From an uncultured Christensenellaceae bacterium (GTDB lineage Bacteria; Bacillota; Clostridia; Christensenellales; UBA3700), in assembly GCA_963931165.1 (NCBI GenBank), contig OZ006985.1, positions 744,532-808,531 of the forward strand: a stretch of DNA of 64,000 nt. Reading direction: 5' to 3'. Each line of letters opens with the position of its first letter. Position 1 is the first letter of the stretch. The translations under genes were made by a program, and so were the position numbers. Shown here in pieces: positions 1,837 to 54,538 of the stretch. The notes under the pieces were generated by a model, which was not told where the DNA came from, did no database searches, and worked only from the letters and a program-made list of their open reading frames with translations.

Positions 1837-1903
1837 CGGAGACAGATCGAAGAGAAGGGCGCCGCAGGGCGTTCTTCTTTTTTGCGAAAAATGCGCAAAA
1901 ACA

Positions 1904-1932
1904 TTGAAAAGTCAAAAGCGATGTGTTATAAT
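1904..1932 (+). promoter_or_regulatory. sigmaA-type promoter
   Basis: TTGAAA-17bp-TATAAT with TG extension. Confidence 0.75.
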
Positions 1933-1967
1933 ATCGATGGTCGCGAAAGCGGCAAAGGAGGAAAATC

Positions 1968-2438: not shown

Positions 2439-2639
2439 CGCGAAAAAATTTTTGGCGTCGGGCTGAGGCAAGACCTCGCAGAGAATACGTTTTTTGCGAC
2501 CTGTATCGGGTTTTCGGGCGCAAAGGACGTATTTTTTCGCCCCCAAGCGCTCCGCGTGCCGCACGAGCATGCGCGCGCTTTTGCTTTATTTTTGCGCGCA
2601 TATGTGATATTATATTACAAACGACATTCGGAGAGTGTT

Positions 2640-4813: not shown

Positions 4814-5709
4814 TCGACAGACTTATCGACAAGATCAAAGAGAAGGACAACCCGTCGGTGGCGGGGCTCGATACCTGCATCGACTATCTGCCCGACGACG
4901 TGCGCGGCAAGTGCGAGACGCTCTATGACGCGGCGAAGTACATCACGGACTTCAACTTTGCGCTGATCGACGCGATCAAGGACGTCGTCCCCGCGGTCAA
5001 GGTGCAGGTCGCCTACTATGAGATGTACGGCGTCGAGGGCATGCGCGCGTTCTCGGATACGCTCGCGTATGCGCGTCAGCACGGGCTGTTCACGATCGCC
5101 GACGTCAAACGCAACGACATCGGCAGCACCGCTTCCGCTTACAGCAACGCCTACCTCGGCGAGACGGTGCTCGAGGGCAGCGCGGTCACGCCGTTCGAGA
5201 GCGACTTTGTCACCGTCAACGGCTATCTCGGCAGCGACGGCGTCTTGCCGTTCGTCGCCGATTGCAAAAAGAACGACCGCGGCATCTTCGTCCTCGTCAA
5301 GACCTCAAACCCCGGCAGCGGCGAGCTGCAGGACAGGCTGATGGACAACGGCAAGACGCTGTACGAAAATATGGCGTGCCTCGTCGACGAGTGGGGCGCG
5401 GATCTGCGCGGCAAGTACGGCTATTCGAGCGTCGGCGCGGTCGTCGGCGCGACGCACAGAGCGCAGGCGGAGGCGATCCGCAAAGCGCACCCGAACCTCT
5501 TCTTCCTCATCCCCGGCTACGGGGCGCAGGGCGGAAAGGCGGAGGATCTCGCGGTCTGCTTCCGCGACGGCATCGGCGGCATCGTCAACTCGTCGCGCGG
5601 CATCCTGACCGCGTACCGCAAGCCGCAATATGCGGGCAAGACGTTCGACGAGGCGGCAAGGCTCGCCGCGATCGCAATGCGTGAGGACATCGGCAAGTGC
5701 ATAAGATGA
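4807..5709 (+). CDS. pyrF: Orotidine-5'-phosphate decarboxylase (subfamily 2)
   Basis: DVKRNDIGST, IPGYGAQGG and NSSRGI motifs. Confidence 0.96.
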   Translation: MLIDRLIDKIKEKDNPSVAGLDTCIDYLPDDVRGKCETLYDAAKYITDFNFALIDAIKDVVPAVKVQVAYYEMYGVEGMRAFSDTLAYARQHGLFTIADVKRNDIGSTASAYSNAYLGETVLEGSAVTPFESDFVTVNGYLGSDGVLPFVADCKKNDRGIFVLVKTSNPGSGELQDRLMDNGKTLYENMACLVDEWGADLRGKYGYSSVGAVVGATHRAQAEAIRKAHPNLFFLIPGYGAQGGKAEDLAVCFRDGIGGIVNSSRGILTAYRKPQYAGKTFDEAARLAAIAMREDIGKCIR

Positions 5710-39825: not shown

Positions 39826-39863
39826 GGCGGCGTCTTTTACGCAGGGGCTTCACCCCGCCGCTC

Positions 39864-39996
39864 GCTAAGACCCGAGGGTATTGACCTTCGCGGTCGATGG
39901 TTCGCCCCTGCGCAAAATACGCTCGCCTCAACTGCGAGCACCGACAAAAAATTCCGACGGCAAAACGCCGTCGGATATTTTTATGTCGGCTTGTCC
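39864..39996. repeat. Dispersed hairpin repeat, related to 21066-21197
   Basis: Shared GCTAAGACC...AGGGTATTGACCT and GCACCGACAAA...TGTCGGCTTGTCC blocks. Confidence 0.7.
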
Positions 39997-40081
39997 ACAT
40001 ACACGCGGCGCGGTCTATTTTTTGGGCTCGGTTCTATGCCGTAACAAACATAAGCGCGCGATGACAGCGCGCTTCCTCAGC

Positions 40082-40206
40082 GTTGCCAAAGGCAACATTT
40101 CACGCTTGCGCGATGCGCAAGCATTTCACGCGGCGGTCAAACGGCCGCCGTATTTCATGTTTGCGCGACAGCGCAGACATTTCACCGCCGGGGCAGCTTG
40201 CCCGGC
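40082..40206. repeat. Array of five short hairpins separated by ATTTCAC
   Basis: ATTTCA(C/T) at 40097, 40123, 40152 and 40179, each flanked by different GC-rich stem-loops. Confidence 0.75.
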
Positions 40207-40346
40207 TTGCGCGGTCTGTTTTTGGGCTTGGGTTGAGGCATAATAATAAGGAAAACGAATAGTCTATACCAAAAAGAACCGATTTGATAAACGCAATCGC
40301 GGAGTATCCGGCGAGAGATTTTCGAAGATATTGCGCCAACGTATAT

Positions 40347-40470
40347 AAAAAGAAAAGCGGTCAGTAACGACCGCTTGCGACCGATCACGGCCGCTCCGCC
40401 CTAGAATATATAGGGCAGGCGTATTGAGCACACAGCAAACCATATCAACGGTCAGGCGGCTCACTTGCAA
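40347..40470 (-). ncRNA. Candidate orphan small RNA (about 120 nt)
   Basis: Minus-strand TTGACT(40504-40499)-17bp-TATAAT(40481-40476); terminator AAGCGGTC...GACCGCTT plus U-run. Confidence 0.5.
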
Positions 40471-40828
40471 TGGTGATTATAATGCAATGTTAGAGATAAG
40501 TCAAGCAAAACAACGAAAATTTTACAACTGGACGACTTTGGCAATTGTATTCTTTTCTTCTTGGAAAGTCAAGCCTTACATAACATGGTACAGTTGAACA
40601 AGATTCGCAAAACGGATCTATTCGGGAAAATTGGTGGAGACAACTCGCCTTACAGCGATTGCCGATAGGGGACGACGAGGCACATATCCGCATTGAACGA
40701 CTGCTTAAATAGTAACGCTGTTCAAGCGAAACAACGAAGTTTGAATGCCGCGCCGCAAAGCGAGCGCGGAACAGAAAAAGCCTGTCGCGGATTGCAAAGC
40801 AATACGCATAACAGGGGGACGATTCCCC

Positions 40829-40858
40829 AAAAAAATACCGAGTCAAAAGACCCGGTAT
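40829..40858 (-). terminator. Displaced original terminator of tRNA-Glu
   Basis: Minus strand TCACCA followed by ATACCGGGTC-TTTT-GACTCGGTAT-TTTTTT; the G-U pair fits minus-strand transcription. Confidence 0.7.
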
Positions 40859-41207
40859 GGTGAACTGTCTTTCGAGATGTCCGAACACGTATTTGGCGGC
40901 GATTCGGCAATGGATTTATCTCCAATATCATCTGTTTTCGGCGGCATCCGATTGAGATAGTTGTAGTAAATCTCAAAACGGTCGATGGCGTACACAAGTA
41001 CGATATCCCACGGCACGGCTTTTTCACAATCGGCAAGCATCTGCTGAAATGCAGGGCGATGGTCGTTCGTGCCTGTCATGGCTCTGTCGATATAGGTATC
41101 TAAAATCGTCAAACCGTTCGCCTCCGCATACTGATTGCAGATTCGGAGCTGTCCTTCGATGGACTGCTCGTTTTGTTTTTCACTGCTGTAACGTGCGTAG
41201 ATAACTG
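40843..41207 (-). pseudogene. Large serine recombinase remnant: split by insertion and internally deleted
   Basis: IYARYSS...QSIEGQ...DRAMTG...AIDRF joined directly to C-terminal EIYYNY...SSP; first codons displaced to 53183-53197. Confidence 0.85.
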
Positions 41208-41530
41208 TCACATATTTTTATGGACACTTTTTATCAAGTATTGCTACACCGCCAAATTCAATTTTTCGTTTCAAAAGGGTTTTGCCGGGTAGAATCACAA
41301 AAATAGACAGTCTAAAAAATACAATAAGCAGTCTGGATTTAACGAAAAACGGCCTCTGAAGTTCAGAGGTCGTTTCGATTTATTATTCATAACATAAGGA
41401 TGTCTAGAATTTGACTATTGTAAGAAACCAGCTTATCGTGAATCCCAAGTTCCAGGACATAATTCAAAAGTACTGAAATTTAATTTAATTAAAAAACTTA
41501 CACACTTCTCCTGAAACTGCCATATACATA

Positions 41531-44401
41531 TTACATAATATATTCAAACGACACTAAATCGCTGCCCATGTCTCCTTGCTTTAAGAGTTTACACACCATC
41601 CTTGAATATTTAATTGTTACAGGCAATTTTGAATAAATCACATCAGAGCTATTGAAATCCATTTTTGTTAAATACATAAGATCGTCAATTGCTTCATTTG
41701 CAGATATATTTCCGTAATATTTTTTAATTTTTAACGGTTTACCCATACCACGGGGGTTATTTCTATATGTTTGACCTTGGCAAATTTCTGAATTAACAAT
41801 TGAGCCATCAGACCAAACATAAATAGTATCCTTTGCCGCTTTAATCGCGGTTCCTCTTTTTACAGGATAACCCAAACAACCATATTTACCAAATTTGTAA
41901 CTATTAAAGAAAGAAAAGTCAGATATTTGAATTAAATCAAAATCATCTATACCCTCAAAAGCTTTTTTGAAACCAGCAATTTCTTCTTTTCGAAATGGAT
42001 TGGCTCTGTGAATAACTATTCGCTTTAGCTCATTTATTTTTGAGGTTTTATAATATGTTTGTCTAATTTTAATTCCCAGTTGATATGCTTCTTCTTCGGA
42101 AAGATATTGATTTTTTCTATGTTTATCGGATACTTGCGAGATGATTAATTGCATACCGCGTCCAGCACCATCAAACATTTGGCTGCACCCTACATGGATT
42201 CCATCAGAATTAATTCCAAAACTTATACCCAAAAACAGTGTATCTTTTGAATATTTCTCGGGATACCAAGGCATTCCTATAGTTTTTGTATATATTCCTA
42301 TCGCTAAATTAAATAATTTTTTATTTATATTGTCAGCCGAATTAAGTGTAGTTTCCTCGATAAATTGCGTTTTATACTTATTCATACAATGCAGTTTGAT
42401 ATAATCATGTAAATCTTTCTCGCCAGCCACTCGAAATCTTTGCAAATTATTGCCAATGAAAATCAATGCAATATCAATTTGTTTGTCATTATACATTTTT
42501 TGAATTCCACGTAAACACATTTCTGCAAATTTCGTGAAATCAACTTTGTTGTTTGCGGCGAGTTTATTGGCATAAAAAATAGGTATAGCATCATAAATCA
42601 GGTCTATTTCTTTTTTAAATATTGAATTGAAACCCTTATATTTCGGAATTAAATTTGTGCCCGATATATTCGTTCCGTTTAGAAATTGATTCAAAAAATA
42701 TTCTAACTTTGATTTGTCTTCTTCCGCACAAAAAACACCAACACGAATTTTATTTGTAGAAAACAATGTTTTACGCGGTCCGCTTTCCGTTATAATTTTA
42801 ATTTGATTTACGCTTTTGAAATTTTCTCCTACCATAATTGGTTCGGCAGTACAATTATATTTATCAAACGTAACGCAGTCAGTGCGATACCCAAATGGCT
42901 TATTATTAAATATAATTTCAGTAATATCATAATTAAATGAAAATATTCCCCTAAAGAATTTTTGTATAAGTTCATTCAGCTTATGGTAATTCTTTTGTGC
43001 ATGCAAGTAAGATTTTATGTTATTAATCTTATGTTTAATTGAATCCGACAGAACTTTCTCAGTAGAAAAGTAGTTAACATTTACAAATAAACAAATCTCT
43101 CCACTAAAGAAATCGACACGAACATTAAGCCCCTCTTTAATGGCTTCTCGAGAATTTATATAAATATTATCTTTGTACACTTCAAAACCGTCTTTTAGCG
43201 CCTTTATTTTTATAAATTCTTTTATCAGTTTACATTTCTTTTTTAGCGATATGGACTGTTCACACAAATTAACTATTTTAACTGCCTCAACGGTACAATT
43301 TAACTTTTTGAAGAGCGATTCTTTGTCCCCGACCGCATATAAATATTCGCCATGTTGCAAAATAAACGTTTCATCTTTAATGTCGTTTATCTCCTTTAAT
43401 GTTGAAGAGTCCAATGAATATTTTATCTTATAAACATTGGGATAATTTTGCAACGGATAGCAATTAAACATTAATTTTTCCGGTTGATTTTGTACCATTA
43501 GCGCAAAATTTTCATACTGAATATTTTTTTTAATGTTTTCTATTATGTCATTTTTCTTTCCATAGCAATTATACAGCTGTAAAAACAGATCGTCAAATCC
43601 GTTAATTATATAATAGCCCGATTGAGAATTAAAGCCCATCAATTCATTAATCGCATCATTTTTCGTTTGAGTATTGTCCACGATACACCAAACTAATTCC
43701 GTTTGTTTATGACTTGACAAATATTTTTTTAAACACTCCATTACGGATTGATCTTGTCCGGAATATCCAATTACCACAATTTTAGATGTATTAAGAGATT
43801 GAATTGCAGAAAAAATTTTATGAGATAGATTTTTTAATTCAGTTTCGGTGTTTTTAATCTGATCATAAATATAATCTCCATGCAATTTAATTAAATTTAA
43901 TTTTGTAGTTAAATTTGGACAAAGCGAGTCAGAACTTACAGAAAAGTCATACCCATCATTTATTTTATACAAGGCTTTTTCACATAACTTATCAAAATTT
44001 GTGGTCAATACACAATGTATTTGATGTTCAATTAAGTAATTAGCAAAACAAAGATACCCGTAAGATGGCTTTATTGCTTCAAATTTTTCTTTTATAAATA
44101 GACATCTTTCGTTTACAGAAGGAAAACACTTTTCAAAATAATAAGAATATGGATTAACGCCTTGCGGTAGTTGCTCCGTTTTTAAGAACTCAACAAAATT
44201 ATCGTCATTTATGAATAGATTATCGTCATAATGAATATTGTTTTGCGCACAATATATGCGCTTTCTAAATTCCAAAATCAACTTACTTGCGGGCATGCAT
44301 CCAGATAAAACAGAACAGCCTGCCCCAAGTAAAAATGTTACTTCTGAACCATTCAGTAAATTCAAACTGTTAATCAATTGATCTTGTGTGTTATATTTCA
44401 T
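41531..44401 (-). CDS. Single-chain SIR2-APAZ-short Argonaute fusion (SPARSA-like)
   Basis: SIR2 motifs LGAGCS, TTNFD, KLHGD, GYSG; MID HDYIK...TQFI; PIWI with degenerate tetrad (GISF, IHRA) and TKMDFN...KLPVTIKYS. Confidence 0.9.
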   Translation of the reverse strand: MKYNTQDQLINSLNLLNGSEVTFLLGAGCSVLSGCMPASKLILEFRKRIYCAQNNIHYDDNLFINDDNFVEFLKTEQLPQGVNPYSYYFEKCFPSVNERCLFIKEKFEAIKPSYGYLCFANYLIEHQIHCVLTTNFDKLCEKALYKINDGYDFSVSSDSLCPNLTTKLNLIKLHGDYIYDQIKNTETELKNLSHKIFSAIQSLNTSKIVVIGYSGQDQSVMECLKKYLSSHKQTELVWCIVDNTQTKNDAINELMGFNSQSGYYIINGFDDLFLQLYNCYGKKNDIIENIKKNIQYENFALMVQNQPEKLMFNCYPLQNYPNVYKIKYSLDSSTLKEINDIKDETFILQHGEYLYAVGDKESLFKKLNCTVEAVKIVNLCEQSISLKKKCKLIKEFIKIKALKDGFEVYKDNIYINSREAIKEGLNVRVDFFSGEICLFVNVNYFSTEKVLSDSIKHKINNIKSYLHAQKNYHKLNELIQKFFRGIFSFNYDITEIIFNNKPFGYRTDCVTFDKYNCTAEPIMVGENFKSVNQIKIITESGPRKTLFSTNKIRVGVFCAEEDKSKLEYFLNQFLNGTNISGTNLIPKYKGFNSIFKKEIDLIYDAIPIFYANKLAANNKVDFTKFAEMCLRGIQKMYNDKQIDIALIFIGNNLQRFRVAGEKDLHDYIKLHCMNKYKTQFIEETTLNSADNINKKLFNLAIGIYTKTIGMPWYPEKYSKDTLFLGISFGINSDGIHVGCSQMFDGAGRGMQLIISQVSDKHRKNQYLSEEEAYQLGIKIRQTYYKTSKINELKRIVIHRANPFRKEEIAGFKKAFEGIDDFDLIQISDFSFFNSYKFGKYGCLGYPVKRGTAIKAAKDTIYVWSDGSIVNSEICQGQTYRNNPRGMGKPLKIKKYYGNISANEAIDDLMYLTKMDFNSSDVIYSKLPVTIKYSRMVCKLLKQGDMGSDLVSFEYIM

Positions 44402-44419
44402 TATTAATTTCTCCGCAGA

Positions 44420-46384
44420 TTAAATTCTATCTATAATCTTTTGTTGGTACCACGCATTAGGCGCAATGTTGGATTGATACGCTTGATTAAATATTTGGTA
44501 CAACTGAGCATATGTTATTTGTTTTTGCATAATTGTTTTCAATTCCTTTGTTTGGCAAGGAATTATTTTCATTCCATCAATATGTTTTGTTCCATCTATG
44601 GAATAATAGGGTATATTTTTCCTGCCCCTAAAATCTGCAATAACATTAACGTGCAGATAGGTTGTCGCAAACAAACAATAAGCATGTTCATCGGCGTGGG
44701 ATAAGAGGTAGTCTCCTAAATGTCTCGAAACGGGCTCCATCTCCATACGGCGTTGATTTGTACTGCTTGCAAGTGTTGCTTCCAGAAGAAGGGTATGGGC
44801 AGGATAGTCTTCCGTCGCTTCGTATTTATAGGTAATGTCTTCATGTCCGCCCGCGGCATGGGTTACAGGCAGCAGATCCGCATCAAGCGATAAATTCATG
44901 TAGTCAAGGATTTTTCCTTGTCTTCCGGAAATCTTATACCATGCGATAGCCAGCACGTACTCAAAGATAGTAGGGACATCTGCATTGTTCGTAACCAGGG
45001 TTTGAATGTCACTATCACGCCTATCTTCAAAAGCGGACAAGAGAAAGATAATGTTTTCGTCCGTAAATCTGCGGTCAATCATCGCATTGAATCGTTCATA
45101 GCGTTCTCTATCGACAAAAGCTTGTACGTCATACAAGTTACGAACTTGAACGCCATATATTTCTTCAACCTTAGCAAATATCTGATTTTCGGTTATCTGC
45201 GTCCCGACAATCGATTCCAAAGAGCTGTTTCCCATCAGATTGTCATCTGAAGTATATGCTAAAGCTGCAAGGCTTTCTTCGGCAATTTTGAAGAAACAAT
45301 TCGGGATTATATCAAACTTGACTTTACCGTCTTGGAACAATACGGTATCTGTCGTTTTGAAGTACCGTCTGTTAAGGTCAAAATAATCCGATAGAGTGCT
45401 CTTTGCCTTAAATAAATGCAGAAGCTTAAAAAATTCGGTTTTGAACTCCGTTTCGTCTGCACAGTTAAAAATATGAGCGTGTCTATTTATAGTGGCAAAG
45501 CCGTCTCTATTGACTTTGCTTGTCAAAGTTGCATTAAACAGATACTGTTTCCAAAGAATTGAACTCTTGCCGCTGACTGATTTTACCGCTTTGAATAAAT
45601 TTATTGCAGCCGTATCAGAACGAGTGAGGATGACATCCTGTAATGTCTTATACAACTTAAAATACGGCTTGTCATAATTGCGGCTCTTGCGATTCATACC
45701 GACTTCTGTAATGACATCTTCAGTAACATTGCTCGCAAGCAGTATATCAAGCGCTTCCTTATAATTCGGCATATCCATAAGGATATTGATTATCGTTTCA
45801 TCGATAGTGCCATTGCCGTTACGAATCTTTTCAATGCTGTCAAATATATCTCGGGTTTTTGCCTCGTTGATTGCGAGCGGCAAAAGGTATGTAACCTCAT
45901 CAAACGACAACTCACCCAAACGATTGAGGGCCATGATCAGGATAACATAAGGCCGTACATAGCCGCTATTGATAGGCGAATGTACTTTAAGAAGCTGGTT
46001 CAGATACAGAAAACTATCCGCCGGAATTTGAAGCAGGTTATTAGTATTGAAGTTACCGGTTAATGCTATCTGCAATAATGCGGTGCCAGCATCTGTGAGC
46101 CTGCGCTCATCGTTGATAAGGCCGAGATCTACAAGTCCGGACGTTTTTTCTCTTGCGTCTTTTGCTTTTCGTGGAGCTTCGCCTTCAATGAAGCCGTTTT
46201 CCTTAAGAAAATCGTAATACGCAATCTGCACCGGTTCATTCTCAGACCACCGCTGATTTGAAAAAGCAGGATTAGCCCAAAAATCGCTCAAAAGTTCAAG
46301 CTGCCTTTCAATCTTTCTATTAAACTCAACCATTCGGAAGCTTGTAGTTCCAAGCGACCAACAATAGCTTTTATATGCAGGCAC
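44420..46384 (-). CDS. AlwI-family type IIS restriction endonuclease
   Basis: N-terminal WSLGTTSFR, EYVLAIAW, LLEATL and EMEPVSRHL motifs recalled for this family; adjacent dual methylase. Confidence 0.85.
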   Translation of the reverse strand: MPAYKSYCWSLGTTSFRMVEFNRKIERQLELLSDFWANPAFSNQRWSENEPVQIAYYDFLKENGFIEGEAPRKAKDAREKTSGLVDLGLINDERRLTDAGTALLQIALTGNFNTNNLLQIPADSFLYLNQLLKVHSPINSGYVRPYVILIMALNRLGELSFDEVTYLLPLAINEAKTRDIFDSIEKIRNGNGTIDETIINILMDMPNYKEALDILLASNVTEDVITEVGMNRKSRNYDKPYFKLYKTLQDVILTRSDTAAINLFKAVKSVSGKSSILWKQYLFNATLTSKVNRDGFATINRHAHIFNCADETEFKTEFFKLLHLFKAKSTLSDYFDLNRRYFKTTDTVLFQDGKVKFDIIPNCFFKIAEESLAALAYTSDDNLMGNSSLESIVGTQITENQIFAKVEEIYGVQVRNLYDVQAFVDRERYERFNAMIDRRFTDENIIFLLSAFEDRRDSDIQTLVTNNADVPTIFEYVLAIAWYKISGRQGKILDYMNLSLDADLLPVTHAAGGHEDITYKYEATEDYPAHTLLLEATLASSTNQRRMEMEPVSRHLGDYLLSHADEHAYCLFATTYLHVNVIADFRGRKNIPYYSIDGTKHIDGMKIIPCQTKELKTIMQKQITYAQLYQIFNQAYQSNIAPNAWYQQKIIDRI

Positions 46385-46403
46385 TTCTATTTCCTCCGTA
46401 TCA

Positions 46404-48545
46404 TCAATAGTTCACGATCAGCACTTCCTCTGCCTTGGAAGTTTTATCTTTTGTCTGATAATTTGAATTCGCGTAGTTATAATCTAGGTAAATCACGCGA
46501 TAACGGTCAATATTCCTATCAATCCAATCGAGAAGTATCTTATTCTCTTTCCCCTTGGAATGAAGTACATTGGACAGTGCAAAGCGTATTCCTCGTTCAT
46601 TCAGATTATCAAGATAGGTAAGCAGTTCTTTTTCAAGCATTTCGTTCCAGCCGTCCTGCTCGTTATACGTAGCGCAAGTGATCAGATAGGGCGGATCGGC
46701 ATAGACAAAGGTATTCTCATTCCAATCGTCAGTCAGAAGTTCTCTGAAATCATGGCTTGCAAAACTATAATCGCCGCTCTTTAATCGGTCGATAAAGGTC
46801 GATAACTTCTCACGCATCTTTTTGTTGAAGTCGCGCTTTCCGACAGGGAGATTAAATTCACCCTTGCGATTGAAACGGATTTGGTTATTAAAGGCGTAGA
46901 CAATCAAGACATACAGCGTAACATAATAGTTATACTCTAAATTGGTATGATGATTAAAATCATCTCTTAATTTAAGATAGCGAGAACTATTATATGAGGC
47001 AAGTCCTTCCGCGCTATTGCAACCGTAAAAATCATACCCGTACTTTTCCGTGTTGGAAAGGCCGTACTTTTCTATAATCGCGTCGATCGTTTCAAAAGTT
47101 ACTTGCTTGTCGAGATTTTTAAATGTCCCAAACATATACCGAAGAAGCTCGTTATTGTCATTAAAAATAACGCGATTGCAAGGAACATTGATGCCGACAT
47201 TCCCGCCGCCGCAAAATAAATCGACAAACCTATCTATATCCTGCGGGAAATGGGGCAATATCTGGGGCAGGAGCTTGTATTTTCCTCCCGTATAATTGAG
47301 AGGGGATTGAATAAGCTCTTTTTGCTTGGAATCATAGCACTCACAAAGGAATAAACGCTCTTCATTCCCTGTAATGTTTGATTTCCCGGCACTGAACGCC
47401 CTGTAGCTTTCCGAAAAGACCTTTACGCGCCCCTTTCGTGATAAAATACGCATAATATCTGCGTCACTGATTTTGGCATTGGAACGGTCATTACCTTTTG
47501 TCGCCATATTATTGTACGACAACAGAATATATTTTGCCTTAATATGCGAAACAAGATCTTCAAACGCCTGCGCTGCGCTTGAAGTACAATAATCACTCTT
47601 GAGTTTTGAACGATCCATCTTTAAGGCAACACCCGATACCTTTGGCTTTTCCCACCTTGCAACGTTTTCCAGAAGATGGTATGAATCGCAGTATTGTCTT
47701 GAATTATACGGCGGATCGATATACACCAGATCAGCCTCTATACGTTTAACCAATTCGTTAGCATCTTCATTGTAGCATTGATTGTTTTCGTTATTATCAT
47801 TGCTTGCCAAGGGGACAGCTAATTCAATATGACGGCAGAATTCAGCATTGCGTATATAGGCGTCGTAATGGCCGCAGGTGTTTGCAATTTTATCCATTGC
47901 GTAGAGTAGCGAAGTGATCAGAATCGCACGTTCTCTGGCATTAATCTGATTACTTTTGTATTTGCTTTCTATATCCTCTCTGATAAAACCAATCTTACGG
48001 CAATCCGCAGCAGAAAAAAACGTATCGGAAAAATTTTCCGACATATAATTCTCTTCGTTTGGTTGCACGGTGTTATAGAAGCAAACCAAGTCAATTATCT
48101 TTTCCTTATCATATTTTTGCGCACCGAACCATGCAACGTGACAAATGTAATTAAAGTAGAGCAAGTCATTTGTAATCAGTTTTTTGTCTGAAAAAGCAGA
48201 CGCAACAGAACCCGTCCCCGCAAAAATATCGGCGACAGTATTGATTGCACTGCATTCTCTATTTACCGTAGACTTAATAAAATCCAGCAGTTTGTACTTG
48301 TTCCCGAGATAACGCCTATTATTGATTTGGGTGGTCTTGTAGGAGGGTTCCGAAGCTACAGCATTATCTTCCGGTGCGTCTTTTAGTAATATTTTGAGTT
48401 GCGCAATCGAGTCCTCATCCCAGACATAGCGCCCAGTAGAAGTAGTTGGTAATTCTATCAAATGATGTTTTAGCAGATAATAGAAAGTAGATCTGCTGAC
48501 ATTCAACTCTTTCAAAATCTCATTAGAAGATAATGCAGACGGCAT
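46404..48545 (-). CDS. Two-domain N6-adenine DNA methyltransferase with N-terminal HTH
   Basis: Two sets of motif I (DIFAGTG, DLFCGGG) and DPPY; N-terminal HTH-like ILKELNVSRSTFYYLL; AAGGAG SD before ATG 48545. Confidence 0.92.
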   Translation of the reverse strand: MPSALSSNEILKELNVSRSTFYYLLKHHLIELPTTSTGRYVWDEDSIAQLKILLKDAPEDNAVASEPSYKTTQINNRRYLGNKYKLLDFIKSTVNRECSAINTVADIFAGTGSVASAFSDKKLITNDLLYFNYICHVAWFGAQKYDKEKIIDLVCFYNTVQPNEENYMSENFSDTFFSAADCRKIGFIREDIESKYKSNQINARERAILITSLLYAMDKIANTCGHYDAYIRNAEFCRHIELAVPLASNDNNENNQCYNEDANELVKRIEADLVYIDPPYNSRQYCDSYHLLENVARWEKPKVSGVALKMDRSKLKSDYCTSSAAQAFEDLVSHIKAKYILLSYNNMATKGNDRSNAKISDADIMRILSRKGRVKVFSESYRAFSAGKSNITGNEERLFLCECYDSKQKELIQSPLNYTGGKYKLLPQILPHFPQDIDRFVDLFCGGGNVGINVPCNRVIFNDNNELLRYMFGTFKNLDKQVTFETIDAIIEKYGLSNTEKYGYDFYGCNSAEGLASYNSSRYLKLRDDFNHHTNLEYNYYVTLYVLIVYAFNNQIRFNRKGEFNLPVGKRDFNKKMREKLSTFIDRLKSGDYSFASHDFRELLTDDWNENTFVYADPPYLITCATYNEQDGWNEMLEKELLTYLDNLNERGIRFALSNVLHSKGKENKILLDWIDRNIDRYRVIYLDYNYANSNYQTKDKTSKAEEVLIVNY

Positions 48546-48587
48546 AGAACTTCTCCTTATGCAACTTACTCGCATTGCTTTTTAGAC

Positions 48588-48616
48588 ATTATACCATATA
48601 TCTTGTGTTTTTTCAA
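48588..48616 (-). promoter_or_regulatory. Promoter of the MTase-REase-SIR2/Ago operon
   Basis: TTGAAA-17bp-TGGTATAAT on the minus strand. Confidence 0.75.
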
Positions 48617-49218
48617 GAGAATATAGCCTATTAAAGATAAAAATGGATGCTAATCATTCATCGCATCTTAAACAATAGTGGTAGATCCAAAATAACCATG
48701 AAAACATAATTTGGCACCATGACGTGTGCTTGGCATAGACAAGTGCGCCGCGCTGACGCGCGCCGCAGCCAAGCACACGCCGCGAAACGGCAACAAGAAC
48801 AACGCGGAAAACCAAACCGAAAGGCGCGGCGGAGCGGAGCCGTCCCCGCTAAACCGCTTGGGGATCGGCTGCCGCTTTTCCGCCGTGCGATCCTTTCTCT
48901 TCATTGGTTTTGCCGTTCCGTTTACCTCTTTAATTTTGCCTCTTTCGGCAGGTTTAGGTTAGCATAGTCCTCACGCAAGTCAACGGTCGCAAAATCGTCG
49001 CTTAAAACACCCATTATAGACTTTGAGAGTCGAGTAAGGGAAAGTTCCTTGCTCGGATCTTTTGTCGTTTATAAGCCGTTCTGCGCCCTCAACGCAACGA
49101 TTTTTCTTTGTCCCGTTGACTTCCGCAAGCCGACAGAGAATTTGCTCTCTTTTTATCGTCCCATGCTGCCCCGCCTGTTGCCCGAAAAAGGCAAATCCAA
49201 TTCAAGAGGTGAAAGAAA

Positions 49219-49845
49219 ATGGAACAAAAGAAAGTAACAAGAGATTTCAAAGTCCTTGCGGAAAAAATATCTCCGGACAATGTAGCGGTAATGGCGGAAC
49301 TTATTGCAATGAAAGAGACCAAAATACTCATAAGCTATCTGGGGCACCATGCGGAGAAGGCGCATAAAAACCTTTGCCGGGACATTTTCGGCAAACACGA
49401 GTCCGGATATATCTTTTCGGACAGTTACGACTTCGTCCAAAGCGTGGCGTTATTCTTATGTGACCACTTCGGAGAGTATTTGGACGACGTCCTGTATATC
49501 TCCAAAAGAGGCAAACCGAGAACGATAAAGACGGAGTGTTATCTTATCGTCACCAAAATGGTATCAAGGGATTACAGAATTTTCCGTAAATGCCAAAGCC
49601 TTGAAATTACAAGAGAAGAACCGAAACCCGAATATGGACATCAGGCAGACGAAGAACAGGACTATTCACGCGCAGATGAGATCGCGGCTTCCCTTAACCT
49701 TACGAAAAACATGAGCCTTGCGCTCGATTACCGCATGTCCGGTTTGAGCTATCCCGAAATAGCGAAACAGCTTTCCAGAGCGGTAAGCACGGTATACGAA
49801 TACTTCGAGAAAATGCGCGCAAGGTATTCCGCCATATACGGATAG
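49219..49845 (+). CDS. Sigma-70 region 4/LuxR-like HTH protein
   Basis: C-terminal GLSYPEIAKQLSRAVSTVYEY HTH; GAGG SD. Confidence 0.7.
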   Translation: MEQKKVTRDFKVLAEKISPDNVAVMAELIAMKETKILISYLGHHAEKAHKNLCRDIFGKHESGYIFSDSYDFVQSVALFLCDHFGEYLDDVLYISKRGKPRTIKTECYLIVTKMVSRDYRIFRKCQSLEITREEPKPEYGHQADEEQDYSRADEIAASLNLTKNMSLALDYRMSGLSYPEIAKQLSRAVSTVYEYFEKMRARYSAIYG

Positions 49846-49867
49846 ATTTTCTATTTCATACTTCATT

Positions 49868-49902
49868 AAAGGCAGTTGCTTGCTATAAAGCGGCTGCCTT
49901 TT
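49868..49902 (+). terminator. Intrinsic terminator
   Basis: AAAGGCAGTTGCTT...AAGCGGCTGCCTTTT. Confidence 0.65.
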
Positions 49903-50183
49903 CTCATGTTCCTCGAAGCATTGCTTTTCCAAAAGTTTAGTAAATGGGGCAAAAAACCTGCCCCATTTATTTGTAGGATAAAGAAAAACTTTTTCAAATA
50001 GGAAAAAAGCCTTCCTATTTGGCGGATACCATGTGGAAAAAGCAAGCGAAAGACTTTTTCAAAGTGGAAAGAAACCTTGCCGGTTTGACTTGTAGAATTA
50101 TTCCAAGGAACTTCGTAAAGGTGCAAAAACTTTGCGAGTTTAAGGTTTAAGCTATGCAAAAAATACAAGGAGGAACAAAAGCA

Positions 50184-51077
50184 ATGCCTTACAAAGCAGC
50201 AAAGATCTCGTTTGACGGAAGTCATTACATCGCCACCCCTAAGGAAAATTTCCCGCAGGGACATAAGCGACGACGGGCAGCCATTCCGTCAACACCAAAA
50301 GAGGTCGAACAAAAAGCGCAATTCGAAGCCGCCTACAAGGAAAGTCAAAAACTGCCGCGCAAAGAACGCAAAGCATGTATGCAAAAAGCTATGGAAGAGG
50401 CGATCCCAGACAAGGAGCAGCGGAAAGAATACGTGGAGCGGAACAATGAACGCAAAAAGACGAATGCAATCCGCAGAAAAGTCCGTTTGTCCAAGAAAGT
50501 GAATTTGCAGAGAGAATGGAGCTATTTTTGCACGTTCACCTTTTCGGACGAAAAACACACGGAAGAAAGCTTCCGTAAGTCGCTGCGAAACACTTTGAAG
50601 CACCTCGTAAACCGCAAAGGCTGGAAACATATCGGCGTATGGGAGCGCGGCGGAGAAACCGGAAGATTGCATTTTCACGGTATCTTCTATATTCCGCCGG
50701 ACAGGATGGTCGGAGAGATCGTGGAAACAAAGGATTACAACACAAAAGACCATCGAATGCAGACGGCGCACCAGAACACCTATTTCCTTGAACGATACGG
50801 ACGCAACGACTTCCAGCCGCTCGGCTCGCAGGAAGAAGTACAACACTCTTTGGGGTATCTGATGAAGTACATAGAAAAGTCCGGCGAGCGTCTGATCTAT
50901 GGCGGCAAACTGCCGACCTACTTCGAATCGGACGTAGCAGACGAGGATATTCTCGCTCCATACGGGATAGACGACAGAAAGGCGATACTTGCGGACAATT
51001 TTACCTGCATGGTGGACGGAGAAGTCATAGGCAAAGTAAGTCCGGAAGTCATAGCAAAAATGCCGAAGGCAAATTAA
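50184..51077 (+). CDS. HUH-family rolling-circle replication initiator (Rep)
   Basis: Motif 1 FCTFTF, motif 2 LHFHG, motif 3 YLMKY; AGGAGG SD. Confidence 0.85.
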   Translation: MPYKAAKISFDGSHYIATPKENFPQGHKRRRAAIPSTPKEVEQKAQFEAAYKESQKLPRKERKACMQKAMEEAIPDKEQRKEYVERNNERKKTNAIRRKVRLSKKVNLQREWSYFCTFTFSDEKHTEESFRKSLRNTLKHLVNRKGWKHIGVWERGGETGRLHFHGIFYIPPDRMVGEIVETKDYNTKDHRMQTAHQNTYFLERYGRNDFQPLGSQEEVQHSLGYLMKYIEKSGERLIYGGKLPTYFESDVADEDILAPYGIDDRKAILADNFTCMVDGEVIGKVSPEVIAKMPKAN

Positions 51078-51257
51078 ATTCATTTGTCTTTCGCCGAGAG
51101 AGCGTAAACGAAAACGCCCTTTTCGTCAAGGGTAAAGTGCATTGCCTTGGCAACCCTTGACGGAAAGTAACAGACAGGACAGCAAGGGGACGAATCTTGC
51201 GTTTCCGTTTGTTTCGTCTCCGCCGAAAGGCAAAGTAAACAAACAGGAGGATAAAAA

Positions 51258-51452
51258 ATGAACAACATTGAGGTCAAAACGATTTACGGCAGGATAGAAG
51301 ATTTTGAAAATAATTACTTCTTCTCTCCGTCTATCAGCAAAAGAAAAACTGTGGGCAGGCAGACCTATTACGTCCGCAGATATTTCAACGGCGGCAAAGA
51401 CTTTGAACAGGCTATGAAGTCCATTGCCGTGCAGCGCACAATGAAAAAGTGA
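51258..51452 (+). CDS. TnpW-like small protein
   Basis: AGGAGG SD; VGRQTYYVRRYF resembles TnpW; position just before the recombinase. Confidence 0.5.
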   Translation: MNNIEVKTIYGRIEDFENNYFFSPSISKRKTVGRQTYYVRRYFNGGKDFEQAMKSIAVQRTMKK

Positions 51453-51462
51453 GGTAAACGAT

Positions 51463-53094
51463 ATGAAACAGAAACACTACATCGCGGGATTGTATTACAG
51501 ACTTTCCCAAGAGGACGAACGTCAAGGCGAATCGGTATCCATAGACAACCAAAGAACAATCTTACGCAAGTATGCCGAAGAGCGCGGCTTTACCATCCAC
51601 GACGAGTACATTGACGACGGCGTATCGGGTACGACATTTCAGCGCCCTGAAGTGCAAAGATTGTTGGACGACGCAAAGACGGGCGTCATCAATACCATCA
51701 TCGTCAAAGACCTTTCAAGATTCGGACGAAACTACATTGAAGTCGGGCAATATGTGGATTATGTATTCCCCGCGTTCGGTATTCGCTTTATTGCCATACA
51801 AGACAACGTGGACACGGAAAATCGTGACAGCGGCGCAATGGAGATGATGCCTATCATGAACGTCTTTAACGAGTGGCACGCGGCTAATACGAGCAAGAAA
51901 ATTCGCGCGGTAAAAAGAACGCACGCTCTCGAAGGAAAATTCAGCGGTTCAAGAACACCGTACGGTTATCTGAAAGGAACGGACGAAAAAAGGACTTTCG
52001 TGATAGATGAAGAAACTGCGCCCGTCGTGAAAAGGATTTTTGAGATGTATGCGTCCGGTATCAGCCCTCAAAGGATAGCAGAAATTTTCAATGAGGAAGA
52101 TATACCAAGTGCCGGCAGGATCGCATTTTTGAGGAGCGGCAGGAAATATAACAACAACGAGCATCCCTACTGGGAGCAGGCGACAATTAGACCGATATTG
52201 AAAAACATTGCTTATCTCGGACATCTGGCGCAGCAGAAATTTACCACAATTTCGTATAAAAATCAGAAAGCAATACAAAAAGACCCGAGCGACTGGGTAA
52301 TCGTTTATAATACGCATCCGCCTATTATCTCACAGGAATTGTGGGACAGAGTACAAGAGCGCATGAAATCACAGGCAAAAGGCAGAAAGATGCACACGGG
52401 AATTACGCATCCGCTTTCGGGATTTTTATACTGCGCCGATTGCGGCGGAAAATTGAAAATGGGCTATGCATGGGACAAAAGAAAGAATGATTACAGGTAT
52501 AATTTTGACTGCGGCAGGCTGAAGCGTTATGGAAAATCATATTGCTTCTCGCACTATATACAGGCGCATATTTTGGAAAAGATCGTGCTTGACGATATAC
52601 GGGATATGGCAAAAATGATTGTACTCGACGAGGATTCTATCCGCGAAGAGTTTGTGCGTCATAATGCTGAATTAAGAGATCAATCCGTGAAGTCTGTAAA
52701 AAAACAGTTACAGGTAAAACGCAGACGTACGGAAGAATTATCCCGCCTTATGCAGACAGCTTATGAAGACAGAGTGAACGGCAAGATGCCCGAGGATATC
52801 TGTATCGGTTTTATCCAAAAATATTCCGAAGAACGGAAACGACTGGAAGCAGAGATCGCGGAACTGGAAACAAAACTGAACGAAGCGGAAACCGTGCGGC
52901 AAAGCGCGGAAGATTTTATACAAAACGTCAAGAAATATCTCGACGCGCCTGAACTCACACGGGAAATGTGCTACGAACTGATTGAGCGAATAATCGTAGG
53001 CGGCCTGCCGAAAATAACGGGCAAAGAACGGACGATAGAGATTGTATATAAAGTCGATATCTCTTCCGTCCTGCGACATAAATTCCGCCAATAA
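51463..53094 (+). CDS. Large serine recombinase (TnpX/TndX-like)
   Basis: LYYRLSQED, DDGVSGT, KDLSRFGRN; recombinase domain; Zn ribbon CADC...C; C-terminal coiled coil. Confidence 0.95.
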   Translation: MKQKHYIAGLYYRLSQEDERQGESVSIDNQRTILRKYAEERGFTIHDEYIDDGVSGTTFQRPEVQRLLDDAKTGVINTIIVKDLSRFGRNYIEVGQYVDYVFPAFGIRFIAIQDNVDTENRDSGAMEMMPIMNVFNEWHAANTSKKIRAVKRTHALEGKFSGSRTPYGYLKGTDEKRTFVIDEETAPVVKRIFEMYASGISPQRIAEIFNEEDIPSAGRIAFLRSGRKYNNNEHPYWEQATIRPILKNIAYLGHLAQQKFTTISYKNQKAIQKDPSDWVIVYNTHPPIISQELWDRVQERMKSQAKGRKMHTGITHPLSGFLYCADCGGKLKMGYAWDKRKNDYRYNFDCGRLKRYGKSYCFSHYIQAHILEKIVLDDIRDMAKMIVLDEDSIREEFVRHNAELRDQSVKSVKKQLQVKRRRTEELSRLMQTAYEDRVNGKMPEDICIGFIQKYSEERKRLEAEIAELETKLNEAETVRQSAEDFIQNVKKYLDAPELTREMCYELIERIIVGGLPKITGKERTIEIVYKVDISSVLRHKFRQ

Positions 53095-53098
53095 CAAC

Positions 53099-53136
53099 AA
53101 AGCGTATGGGTTTCATTCAAACTCATACGCTTTTTC
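53099..53136 (+). terminator. Terminator after recombinase
   Basis: AAAGCGTATGGGTTT...AAACTCATACGCTTTTT. Confidence 0.8.
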
Positions 53137-53182
53137 TATGCCGTTTGCACTTTCTTCAATAGTGTCCATAAAATGAAATAGC

Positions 53183-53210
53183 AACTGCACCTTTCATTGT
53201 CGTTTACCTC
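53183..53210 (-). pseudogene. Displaced SD and first five codons (MKGAV) of the outer recombinase
   Basis: Minus strand GAGGT-aaacgaca-ATG AAA GGT GCA GTT; continues in frame at 41202 after excision. Confidence 0.85.
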
Positions 53211-53896: not shown

Positions 53897-53947
53897 TTGA
53901 CATAATTTTTCTTTTCTTCTATAATATATGCAAGTGAACACTTGCAT
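53897..53947 (+). promoter_or_regulatory. Promoter and palindromic TetR operator
   Basis: TTGACA-17bp-TATAAT, followed by ATGCAAGTG-AA-CACTTGCAT (53928-53947) over the start site. Confidence 0.8.
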
Positions 53948-53962
53948 TTTATGGAGACAGAT

Positions 53963-54538
53963 ATGGATAAGACGAGCGAAAAGATAATCGATGCCACGAT
54001 GGAGTTGATTTTGGAATGCGGCTATGCGGCGGCAACCACCAAAGATATTGCCGTGCGTGCAGGAGTGAATGAATGTACCATCTTCCGAAAGTTCGGAGAA
54101 AAGAAGGAAATTGTTGTTGAAGGGATGAAGTTGCCACGCTGGCATCCTAATATCACAAAAGATACTTTTGCAGACATTTCCGGAGATTTGCGTGCCGACC
54201 TCACGATGTTTATGGAGAACTATATGCGCGAAGTTACTCCCGAATTTGTAAAACTCTCCGTCGGCTTGCGTTCGCCGCAGATATACGAATATACCGCCCC
54301 AATAATAATGAATATTCCGCAGGTATTCCTTTCAGAGGTAAAAAAATACCTGCAAACTATGCAGAGGCTTGGCAAGGTAAGACAGATTGATATTGACCAA
54401 ACGGCTGAAATGTTCCTTTCGGCTGCATTCGGATACGTCTTCCTCTCCGCTTCATTTGAAAAGGGGCTTTTAAATTCCGACAGAGCTGCGTACATTGAGA
54501 GTACCGTCAACACAGTTATCGGGGGGATTACACAATGA
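53963..54538 (+). CDS. TetR/AcrR family regulator
   Basis: GYAAATTKDIAVRAGVNECTIFRKFGEK HTH; start ATG 53963 after GGAG. Confidence 0.92.
   Translation: MDKTSEKIIDATMELILECGYAAATTKDIAVRAGVNECTIFRKFGEKKEIVVEGMKLPRWHPNITKDTFADISGDLRADLTMFMENYMREVTPEFVKLSVGLRSPQIYEYTAPIIMNIPQVFLSEVKKYLQTMQRLGKVRQIDIDQTAEMFLSAAFGYVFLSASFEKGLLNSDRAAYIESTVNTVIGGITQ

Follow-up and report, generated by a model that had tools for sequence, protein, structure and literature searches.

Can the opening codons of a recombinase gene serve one mobile element as the site at which it integrates into another? The question is raised by a locus in the genome of an uncultured Christensenellaceae bacterium, where the start of a serine recombinase gene is split by 11,980 bp of DNA. 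We analyzed this locus within a stretch of 64,000 nucleotides (hereafter the window, whose positions are used throughout). Our best explanation, in which we have good though not complete confidence, is that a non-conjugative element of the TnpX/TndX kind, with a conserved backbone and variable cargo, has integrated into a recombinase gene of a different family, and that its target preference is heritable within its clade.

Boundaries and content of the element

The features of the locus are listed in Table 1. AACTG direct repeats are found at 41203-41207 and 53183-53187, and they do mark the ends of an integrated element, as an earlier note made from the sequence alone had proposed. When the flanks are joined, the minus strand reads GAGGTAAACGACA-ATG AAA GGT GCA GTT ATC TAC GCA CGT, i.e. 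MKGAVIYARYSSEKQ..., so that a serine recombinase gene opens at the rebuilt empty site, SD-ATG-MKGA|VIYARYSS. The restored attB includes …GTAGATAACTGCACCTTTCAT…. The same note had described this restoration, and the Resolvase domain match of the restored frame agrees with it. It had also described a symmetric 48-bp junction centred on AC; the joined element ends, AGTGTCCATAAAA-TGAAATAGC-AACTG-TCACATAT-TTTTATGGACACT, are indeed a near-palindrome with perfect 13-bp inverted arms and a central AC. A 5-bp repeat would be trivial alone. What places the boundaries beyond chance is the restored frame, the arms, the drop in GC content (29-47% in the element against ~58% in the host), and the comparative data presented below, namely the junction geometry in relatives and the unoccupied homologous sites. 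The two ends in the window have 5 bp in common, and the only family-wide constant is the AC (GT if flipped), 18 nt after the CCAT of the arm. An exact 2-bp crossover at AC/GT is inferred for this element, as are its excision and current activity. Neither the exact attP circle junction nor the family-level attP pattern gave any match (0) in public metagenome and viral contigs.

Table 1. Position and basis of the features of the element, its attachment sites and its target.
Feature	Position	Strand	Basis
Integrated element, 11,980 bp (first AACTG to second)	41203..53187	+	direct repeats, inverted arms, GC drop, frame restored on removal
Target serine recombinase remnant, codons 5 to ~85; homology stops after VLVYAIDRF	40972..41207	-	Pfam Resolvase 1-75/145, E 1.3e-18; break without arm motif
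attL: target half-site (codons 5-12, VIYARYSS, minus strand), AC crossover 41204-41205, element P' arm TGTCACATATTTTTATGGACACT	41180..41229	.	sequence; P' arm conserved across clades
Hairpin then T-run, likely cargo-operon terminator ahead of left end	41350..41372	-	by eye, no tool scan
Cargo: fused SIR2-APAZ-short Argonaute, 956 aa	41531..44401	-	Pfam SIR2_2; PADLOC Aga_SIR2-PNTD1-PNTD2 510 bits, residues 1-944; pAgo models
Cargo: AlwI-family restriction endonuclease, 654 aa	44420..46384	-	Pfam RE_AlwI E 5e-66; PADLOC REase_II
Cargo: double D12/Dam-type adenine methyltransferase, 723 aa	46404..48575	-	Pfam MethyltransfD12, two stretches; PADLOC MTase_II 905 bits
GC-rich structured backbone module with palindrome GACGTGTGCTTGG-hairpin-CCAAGCACACGCC	48700..48960	.	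repeated in genome, including inside copy 2
Backbone: 208-aa protein, sigma-70 region-4-like HTH	49219..49845	+	weak Pfam match below cut-off; kept in all complete relatives
Backbone: HUH rolling-circle Rep, 307 aa; motifs CTFTF, HFHGIF, YLMKYIEK	50154..51077	+	Pfam REP_ORF2-G2P E 1.4e-11, above cut-off
Large serine recombinase, 543 aa: Resolvase, Recombinase, Zn ribbon, DUF4368	51463..53094	+	Pfam; TnpX 2MHC E 4.5e-28; TndX ~36% identical
attR: element P arm AGTGTCCATAAAATGAAATAGCA, AC crossover 53184-53185, target codons 4-1 (ATG 53195-53197, minus strand), SD 53206-53210	53161..53210	.	sequence
TetR-family gene of outer, decayed resident island (context)	53942..54538	+	Pfam TetR_N

The recombinase of the element has the full set of domains of a large serine recombinase according to Pfam (Resolvase, E 7e-28; Recombinase, E 3e-26; Zn_ribbon_recom, E 2e-11; DUF4368 at C-terminal residues 472-530, E 1.3e-11). 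It was proposed to be TnpX-like, and its match to the TnpX catalytic domain 2MHC confirms this, together with its 35.8% identity, over 96% of the length, to an annotated tndX of Enterococcus plasmids. No NCBIfam equivalog cut-off was reached, the best model being CcrB with 178 bits for a cut-off of 900. With this intact enzyme and intact att arms, the element has its own integration and excision module, one of the traits of integrative and mobilizable elements (IMEs) in the sense of Guedon et al. 2017; no attB-like sequence was found within its own recombinase gene.

The cargo consists of anti-phage genes, a SIR2-APAZ short Argonaute fusion and a type IIS restriction-modification system. Cargo of relatives includes ribosome-protection-type genes. 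In the backbone, the HUH Rep is kept in 8 of 9 complete relatives (39-94% identity; none found in L058), and the GC-rich palindromic module may be an origin of replication or transfer, a function that we only infer. An Rfam search of 39.8-54 kb, this module included, gave no match, nor did a comparison of the backbone DNA with annotated plasmids and phages. Pfam detected no T4SS genes in the 12 kb, and no VirD4-type coupling protein was found in the whole genome, where a 1003-aa frame gave no more than a weak AAA_10 match, so that no conjugative helper is evident. As for mobilization, the candidates are the Rep, of the ORF2/G2P family, and the GC-rich module; no oriT was identified. Rolling-circle-type Reps have been listed as putative non-canonical relaxases of IMEs (PMC5704250).

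On the target side, recombinase homology ends with ...VLVYAIDRF at ~40974, and nothing recombinase-like lies beyond it. The target gene is therefore a dead remnant, truncated after ~85 codons independently of the insertion, and nothing functional is currently disabled there. This remnant state had escaped the earlier note. We considered the break after DRF as a second insertion by a member of the family, like one seen in genome G014, and dropped this, as the break lies away from the VLV|YKLDRF site and lacks an arm motif. A restart of the target gene at the GTG ACA GTT ATC... of the left end was also rejected, no ribosome-binding site being visible ahead of it by eye. The divergent layout of a recombinase gene and a TetR-like gene is common to the window context and to intact target elements. 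In one of these (L100, by eye), the order is recombinase, TetR-like gene, cargo, HTH and viral-type Rep, with no T4SS genes seen.

Recurrence of insertion at codon 5 of recombinase genes

We then asked whether homologues of the enzyme occupy the same position elsewhere. In the recombinase tree, the clade of the window enzyme has a support of 100/100, and 8 of its 10 members sit at the codon-5 site. The closest relatives were found at this exact position in different recombinase genes and in both orientations (reversed in both L009 and L007), which is what mapping of flanks had been expected to reveal if AVIYAR codons were the repeated target. Rebuilt empty sites read MKNA|VIYARYSS in L006, within an intact 510-aa recombinase, and MNNA|VIYARFSS in L063. 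For L005, L008 and L011, only the right junction is visible (SD, ATG and 3-4 codons). A census of the arm followed by the VIYAR pattern recovered 8 occupied sites in 7 of the 401 genomes of the order, belonging to 7 genera, for an estimated chance expectation of ~0.07 and none (0) in the reversed control. A recombinase N-terminus follows in all matches, and three of the targets are otherwise intact (495-503 aa). In relatives, 17 homologous genes are unoccupied at the same position, and the attB consensus is codon-periodic. Within a target class, the phosphodiester bond at which insertion occurs never varies. In G014 the same arm is found in two different target genes, one of them also hit at WDYVLV| by a second member of the family. 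These clade members and unoccupied sites support the proposal that a TnpX-like enzyme uses the conserved AVIYAR start as attB. The earlier note knew of no characterization of this target class, and we found no paper describing it.

The same note would have considered its proposal refuted by homologues at unrelated sites. Most of the clade is at codon 5, but L055 and L064 of this clade sit elsewhere, and L010, an element 98.8% identical in DNA to that of the window, lies in unrelated high-GC host DNA. Specificity is thus preferential, not absolute.

The reaction that we propose rests on these junctions. The recombinase would have joined its near-palindromic attP to an attB spanning codons 1-12 of a serine recombinase gene of another family, cutting where codon 4 (Ala) meets codon 5 (Val), at an AC/GT dinucleotide. 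As one of its half-sites, this attB would have the DNA for V-I-Y-A-R-Y-S-S, which makes up the first beta strand and includes the catalytic serine; being kept constant by protein function, this DNA is present wherever such recombinase genes occur. Insertion would cut the target gene off from its promoter, ribosome-binding site and start codon, a loss that precise excision would undo. Silencing of the target gene, and disabled mobility of a rival, are plausible inferences. The benefit to the element can likewise only be inferred, and might be a safe landing site, hitch-hiking on the resident, or immobilization of a competitor.

Target preference across the family

Members of other clades also cut recombinase genes, at V(I/L)V|(Y/W)KLDRF, at YYS|ELSQK and in the Recombinase domain. 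Outside recombinases, cuts were found in Rep genes at motif I and in IS200 Y1 transposase genes at GYYVD|TVG. The palindrome of the family's own GC-rich backbone module is a target as well (class (b), 'CAAGCACACGCC' site), used by the second copy of the element in the genome studied here, which lies at genome positions 1616153-1623574. We had considered this class (b) site as an IS200/IS605 element end, and abandoned the idea because it matches the palindrome in the elements' own module. Overall, the DUF4368 family analyzed here is spread over at least seven sites. The ends of L051, L053, L060 and L061 could not be placed, and the outgroup at 51% identity (L069-L084) was left unclassified because what arm detection finds there is a terminator-like hairpin.

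Of the mapped main-clade junctions, about three quarters fall in a few recurrent sites, nearly all of them core genes or backbone DNA of mobile elements, and such sequence is a tiny fraction of genomes. Target class follows the tree, with 20 changes compared to 39.6 when labels are shuffled, and none of 200 shuffles as low (0/200), which demonstrates the link between clade and target. Together with the constancy of the cut within a class, this speaks against a loosely specific, multi-targeting transposon-type recombinase for which a recombinase start is merely the commonest half-site fit, without any selection for hitting rivals and with an incidental effect on the resident. This explanation remains possible, though we consider it rather unlikely. 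The sites of L010, L055 and L064 speak for it, as do the near-identical enzymes found in different target classes (L028/L068, L036/L029, L014/L015), in agreement with the 'multi-targeting' label given by Durrant et al. to the DUF4368 clade (PMC10083194), and the loose resemblance of the core-proximal half-sites of different attB classes to the attP arm.

The insertion could alternatively act as a reversible switch, the excision of the invader restoring the resident recombinase and coupling the mobility of the two, as in the intervening elements of sporulation genes or the prophages of 'active lysogeny'. The same idea was proposed for IMEs in traG of integrative and conjugative elements (ICEs) (PMC5704250). 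Conservative serine recombination would restore the gene exactly, and several interrupted targets are otherwise intact (L006, 510 aa; L007, 545 aa; L097/L106, 503 aa; L108/L112, ~495 aa). No expression or excision data are available, however, and many targets are decayed (window, L063/L109, L107, L110), a state for which inactivation and later decay would account just as well; we consider a switch improbable. Lastly, the element might have inserted only once, long ago, and been passed on by inheritance or transfer along with its target element, so that recurrence would only reflect the spread of the composite. This is contradicted by the data and can practically be set aside: L063 and L109 do agree in their arm and in the 27-aa remnant of their target, and some observations are thus copies of one event, but targets differ after VIYARYSS (EKQNEQ, ERQSEQ, DSQTEQ, ASQTEQ, HSQNEM), both orientations and differing arms are found, the G014 copies are in two different targets, and unoccupied sites are common.

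We therefore retain integration with a heritable preference for recombinase starts. Target preference would be a trait of the enzyme clade, and sister clades would since have settled on other conserved motifs within core genes of mobile elements, apparently by swapping the part of the enzyme that binds DNA along with the att arm next to it. An exchange of this kind is seen between the two copies of the genome studied here: they are 94-100% identical through the HTH, the Rep and recombinase residues 1 to ~150, beyond which the recombinases diverge together with the P arm.

A broader reading, on which with its consequences we remain evenly divided, is that of a radiating family of serine-recombinase elements, in gut Christensenellales-type Clostridia, that is parasitic on other mobile elements. 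The attB of each clade would be a constrained motif of a rival core enzyme, and new targets would be acquired by swapping the DNA-binding half and the arm. These motifs would comprise four serine recombinase positions, one being the catalytic-serine codons, the HUH motif I of Rep, and the C-terminal core of IS200 transposase; the palindrome of the family's own backbone would serve as a site as well. If this is true, the trap is built in, since the target cannot mutate its site away without loss of function; the landing site is harmless to the host and spreads between hosts on the residents, whose mobility is possibly held hostage until excision.

Relation to known elements and significance

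Tn6104 of Clostridioides difficile is located within traG, a conserved gene of a different integrated element, and forms a circle on excision (PMC3158075; PMC5704250). Like Tn4451/Tn4453 (TnpX) and Tn5397 (TndX), it is a small integrative element that recombines at a 2-bp crossover by means of a large serine recombinase of the TnpX type and is flanked by short repeats. The element described here is of this type too, its own 2-bp crossover being inferred. The window element differs from all these by its target, the first codons of a serine recombinase gene rather than a conjugation gene, by its backbone, with an ORF2/G2P-type HUH Rep instead of a MobV or MobA/L relaxase and TnpV, and by a sequence identity of only ~36%; moreover, excision was seen in Tn6104 and is inferred here.

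More generally, IMEs with serine recombinases nest in conserved genes of Tn5252-superfamily ICEs (traG, Maff2-like, SNF2-like), and those with tyrosine integrases insert in oriT of ICEs (PMC5704250; PMC9585547). The strategy is the same, with attB in a conserved core gene or site, 'Matryoshka' structures and several sites per target gene. Site-specific insertion in a conserved gene of another element, as in Tn6104 and IMESp2907, is also seen here, whereas a Tn5252-superfamily host and a conjugation-module target are not: the genes hit encode enzymes of integration and replication (serine recombinase, HUH Rep, IS200 transposase) and belong to insertion sequences or to small elements that are not conjugative. 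The hosts are gut Christensenellales-type Clostridia, not streptococci, and a single recombinase family has radiated over the sites, at least seven in number.

Another related group is the DUF4368-rich clade (e.g. Cp36), which has the same domain architecture and in which close enzymes are found in different target genes; Durrant et al. 2022 read this as relaxed specificity and omitted the clade from their target-gene enrichment analysis (PMC10083194). Their criterion for multi-targeting was enzymes of at least 90% identity in more than 3 different target gene clusters. In our data, the window-type element occupies 2 sites (window and L010), and no 90% cluster was shown at more than 3. The sites found here, in contrast to that reading, are small in number and used repeatedly, and nearly all of them lie within other mobile elements.

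Other selfish elements also land on conserved, constrained sequence of another element or gene. Tn5053/Tn402 transposons hunt res sites, for which they need the resident resolvase protein bound at res, IS1111-family elements insert at the ends of transposons or at attC sites, and conserved catalytic motifs harbour group II introns, homing endonucleases and inteins. These proceed by DDE transposition, retrohoming or protein splicing, as opposed to conservative serine recombination, and the target here is the coding DNA of the recombinase, not a resolvase-bound res.

Mobile elements nested in genes of other mobile elements were already known. What we describe is a new target class within this known kind, serine-recombinase elements nested in mobile-element genes such as Tn6104 in traG. 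The use of catalytic-motif codons of rival recombinases, Reps and transposases as landing sites would be a clear case of parasitism of elements on elements, and the DUF4368 recombinases, so far labelled 'multi-targeting', may in fact recognize a limited number of sites located in mobile DNA. In the natural exchange between the two copies, the catalytic domain is the same while the DNA-binding half and the att arm differ, which provides an existing experiment on how the specificity of serine integrases is encoded and re-programmed, a question relevant to genome engineering. Finally, with a cargo of defence systems in the window and of ribosome-protection-type genes in relatives, such elements have an influence on gene flow within the gut microbiome.

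Boundaries of the element and the gene it interrupts

AACTG repeats had been proposed to bound an 11,980-bp element whose excision restores the start of a serine recombinase gene, and both points hold. The repeats are spaced by 11,980 bp, and once the element and one repeat are cut out, the minus strand reads GAGGTAAACGACA ATG AAA GGT GCA GTT ATC TAC GCA CGT TAC AGC AGT..., translated as MKGAVIYARYSSEKQNEQSIEGQLR..., which Pfam matches to the first half of the catalytic domain of resolvases (positions 1-75 of the 145-position profile, E 1.3e-18). The joined element ends form the symmetric 48-bp junction described earlier, with perfect 13-bp inverted arms and AC exactly central. GC content of the segment is 29-47%, versus ~58% in the host.

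Features of the element and its surroundings (window positions)
Feature	Position	Strand	Remarks
RecD2-type helicase gene	ends 39825		
Interval from target remnant leftwards to RecD2-type gene	39826-40974 (1.1 kb)		GC-rich hairpins, then AT-rich DNA; no recognisable gene
AACTG, left	41203-41207		
Cargo operon	41531-48575	minus	
Fused SIR2-APAZ short Argonaute, 956 aa		minus	PADLOC 510 bits over residues 1-944
AlwI-family endonuclease		minus	middle of cargo operon
Double Dam-type methyltransferase		minus	cargo operon
GC-rich structured stretch, ~250 nt	48700-48960		holds palindrome
HTH protein, 208 aa		plus	
HUH rolling-circle Rep, 307 aa		plus	Pfam REP_ORF2-G2P, above cut-off
Large serine recombinase, 543 aa	51463-53094	plus	Resolvase, Recombinase, zinc-ribbon, DUF4368 domains
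P arm (right end)	53161-53185		
AACTG, right	53183-53187		
TetR gene	53942-54538		
658-aa protein, outer island	57002-58978	minus	very AT-rich DNA; no Pfam (above threshold), NCBIfam or PADLOC match

Among solved structures, the element recombinase is nearest to the catalytic domain of TnpX (2MHC, E 4.5e-28), and annotated TndX of enterococcal plasmids is ~36% identical over 96% of the length, in agreement with the TnpX-like enzyme first suspected; no NCBIfam equivalog cut-off was reached. Its stop codon lies ~90 bp short of the right end, and the gene itself (start MKQKHYIAGLYYRLSQ) contains no attB-like sequence. Argonaute, AlwI-type endonuclease and Dam-type methyltransferase make up the cargo operon; this mobile element has two defence systems in a single transcription unit. 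Backbone DNA matched no annotated plasmid or phage record, and the organism's own genome has no conjugative coupling protein.

We consider it highly probable that the element entered by serine recombination into the conserved start of a recombinase gene. Conservative recombination of its attP with an attB across codons 1-12 of the target would cross over at AC/GT between codons 4 and 5 (codon-5 site, MKGA^VIYAR, ^ marking the crossover). Insertion would strip promoter, SD and start codon from the target gene, and exact excision would give them back.

The earlier note had not remarked that the target gene in the window is only a remnant: recombinase likeness stops after ...WDIVLVYAIDRF, at ~40974, and nothing recombinase-like is found from there up to the RecD2-type gene. 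The truncating event (break after ...AIDRF) and the point where the outer island begins on the left are both unresolved. Where target genes are intact, they border small integrative elements of a different kind. At L100 the order (read by eye, unprofiled) is host queC/queF-like genes, recombinase gene, divergent TetR-like gene, cargo, small HTH protein and viral-type Rep. Because the window repeats this divergent arrangement, remnant recombinase gene then TetR gene within a low-GC island, its resident is a decayed member of this target family; whether decay came before or after insertion cannot be told.

Target sites of homologous elements

Eighty loci were fetched, with enzymes 50-100% identical, mostly from MAGs of gut Christensenellales-type Clostridia. 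In most of them the right arm, (A/T)GTGTCCATAAA, can be made out, and the crossover dinucleotide, 18 nt past its CCAT, is AC in most loci and GT when the site is flipped. Empty sites were rebuilt only where both element ends fell inside the fetched DNA. For L006 (enzyme 85% identical) this gives an intact 510-aa large serine recombinase starting MKNA^VIYARYSS, with Resolvase, Recombinase and Zn ribbon matches in Pfam; rebuilt L063 reads MNNA^VIYARFSS. The site is used in the opposite orientation in L009 (left end SD-TTG AAA ACA GCA GT^) and L007 (right end ^VIYARYSSDSQTEQS, then a 545-aa open frame), and the right junction of L005 and L011 is the reverse complement of SD-ATG-AAR-ACA-GCA-G.

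In the window enzyme's clade (maximum-likelihood tree, support 100/100), 8 of 10 members sit at the codon-5 site, the AVIYAR target whose repeated use the earlier note had proposed as a test. Its claim that a conserved recombinase coding motif serves as attB is supported by this recurrence, but does not cover L010, L055 and L064, found at other sites. The L010 element, 98.8% DNA-identical to that of the window, is flanked by unrelated high-GC host DNA; in the same clade, L055 has the HTH and Rep genes of a different family member beside it, L064 is inserted in host DNA close to ssb, ung and proS, and L052 is bordered by a VFHAR* pseudo-site. TnpX and TndX have a strongly preferred site and secondary sites, and by analogy we read these enzymes as likely to have one strongly preferred site and secondary ones. 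The off-site insertions also agree with Durrant et al. 2022 (PMC10083194), who describe a DUF4368-rich clade of 'multi-targeting' recombinases and excluded it when testing for enriched target genes.

A loosely specific enzyme that hits these genes incidentally would fit part of the data, but would leave the concentration on mobile-element genes unexplained. Pfam, together with a local recombinase HMM, assigned almost all recurrent sites of other clades to core genes of mobile elements.

Insertion targets of other clades (^ marks the crossover)
Target	Site	Loci	Remarks
Recombinase genes	V(I/L)V^(Y/W)KLDRF(S/A)R	L012, L028, L032, L020	L032 restores intact 553-aa gene
Recombinase genes	YYS^(A/E)ELSQK	L033, L034, L056	
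Recombinase gene	in Recombinase domain	L036	target DUF4368-type gene
HUH Rep genes	motif I, T(F/L/I)T(Y/L)	L015, L019, L023, L025	
IS200 Y1 transposase genes	GYYVD^TVG	ten loci	L058 rebuilt; L027 opposite orientation
Non-coding	hairpin-CTCGTATCAAG^AC^AAGCACACGCC	largest class	includes own genome's second copy

Target class follows the tree (20 changes versus 39.6 when shuffled, none of 200 shuffles as low), with imperfect clustering, several near-identical enzymes falling in different classes. The non-coding site matches a palindrome within the elements' own GC-rich backbone module. This ~250-nt module, whose palindrome reads GGCGTGTGCTTGG-hairpin-CCAAGCACACGCC, is present in the window and, in the own genome, at C1:27900-28200 and 38310-38610, where the copies flank ~10 kb with several large genes (1084, 612, 579, 403 aa and others). 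This block is probably a further element or several in tandem, and the module itself could be an origin, an oriT or an att-like site. Separately, the right flanks of the more distant relatives L051, L053, L060 and L061 (60-67% identity) adjoin the reverse complement of SD-ATG-(C/A)AA-AAA-GTA-GTT-T(A/T)C-TC, a gene start encoding MQKVVYS or MKKVV(Y/F)S; element end and gene name remain unplaced.

The own genome's second copy (C1:1616153-1623574, 7,421 bp) shares 94-95% DNA identity with the window element from the GC-rich module through HTH, Rep and ~450 nt of the recombinase gene. Recombinase residues 1 to ~125 are identical, and identity collapses across the DNA-binding domains and the neighbouring P arm. 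The P' arm (left end) is kept across clades, and 8-9 nt of the P arm beside the crossover vary with target class. It looks, from these alignments, as if a specificity module, the DNA-binding half of the enzyme with the adjacent arm, had been exchanged between elements. Cargo of the second copy comprises an IS481-family transposase and an RlmN-family radical-SAM enzyme scoring below both the RlmN (268 vs 290 bits) and Cfr (177 vs 530 bits) cut-offs.

Beside the crossover, 8-12 variable nt of the P arm tend to resemble the target gene start, with an offset of one base in the window (ATGAAATAGCA^AC vs target ATGAAAGGTGCA^GT) and none in L006 (ATAAAACGGCA vs ATGAAAAATGCA). Ordinary half-site similarity or earlier capture of flanking DNA could account for this.

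Occupied and unoccupied sites

A purely conjectural alternative is that insertion into the recombinase gene works as a switch which excision can reverse, and so controls the resident's mobility. As for serine recombination into the gene start, the 74 genomes from the organism's taxonomic family contain 17 homologous recombinase genes that are unbroken at the codon-5 position (SD-ATG-x-x-GCN^GTN-ATH-TAY-GCN), and two more, in genomes G036 and G014, are occupied at the identical bond, with the same kind of arm. A census of 401 genomes of the order for arm + 11 nt + GT + codons of (V)IYAR returned 8 matches in 7 genomes (7 genera, 5 or more families). The same pattern reversed, as a control, gave none, and the chance expectation is estimated at ~0.07. 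All eight continue as VIYAR(Y/F)SS..QSIEGQ.., and in three cases the target gene is intact apart from the insertion (495-503 aa). In G014 (C1:1-4000, L098/L110), a single recombinase gene is broken twice by family members, at codon 5 and at WDYVLV^, where the junction reads GT-TACACATTTTTATGGACACT and the invader end is P'-type.

Since target sequences differ, both orientations are used, arms differ and an identical arm occurs in two different target genes of G014, the codon-5 insertions are largely independent; L063 and L109 look like copies of one event. Spread of a single composite is contradicted by the data.

The attB consensus (20 sites) is AATGAAAAnnGCA^GT^nATnTAnGCnnGnTAnTC. Conservation on the VIYARYSS side has a three-base period, and this half-site is therefore fixed by protein constraint. 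The L006 element (CALWRH010000009.1) itself holds an unoccupied target-type recombinase gene (MKTAVIYARYSS...), so that nesting runs both ways. At its positions 1550-5330 it encodes an ABC-F protein passing the generic ribosomal-protection ABC-F cut-off (410 vs 380 bits), with an Lsa-family score of 616 bits, under the 750 cut-off.

Relation to known nested elements

Serine-recombinase IMEs in conserved genes of Tn5252-type ICEs (traG, Maff2-like, SNF2-like) are established, as are tyrosine-integrase IMEs in oriT (PMC5704250, PMC9585547); TnpX-like Tn6104, with a 2-bp repeat, lies within traG of Tn6103 and excises (PMC5704250, PMC3158075). The present family differs in using recombinase, Rep and IS200 transposase genes. 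Because a search of the open-access literature found no paper giving these as targets of such elements, in keeping with the earlier view of an uncharacterised target class, we rate the target class and its radiating family as new, and nesting in genes of other mobile elements as known. Inference alone stands behind the 2-bp crossover, current activity, silencing of the target gene and any benefit. Possible benefits would be a landing site free of host cost, hitch-hiking on the resident element, or immobilisation of a competitor.
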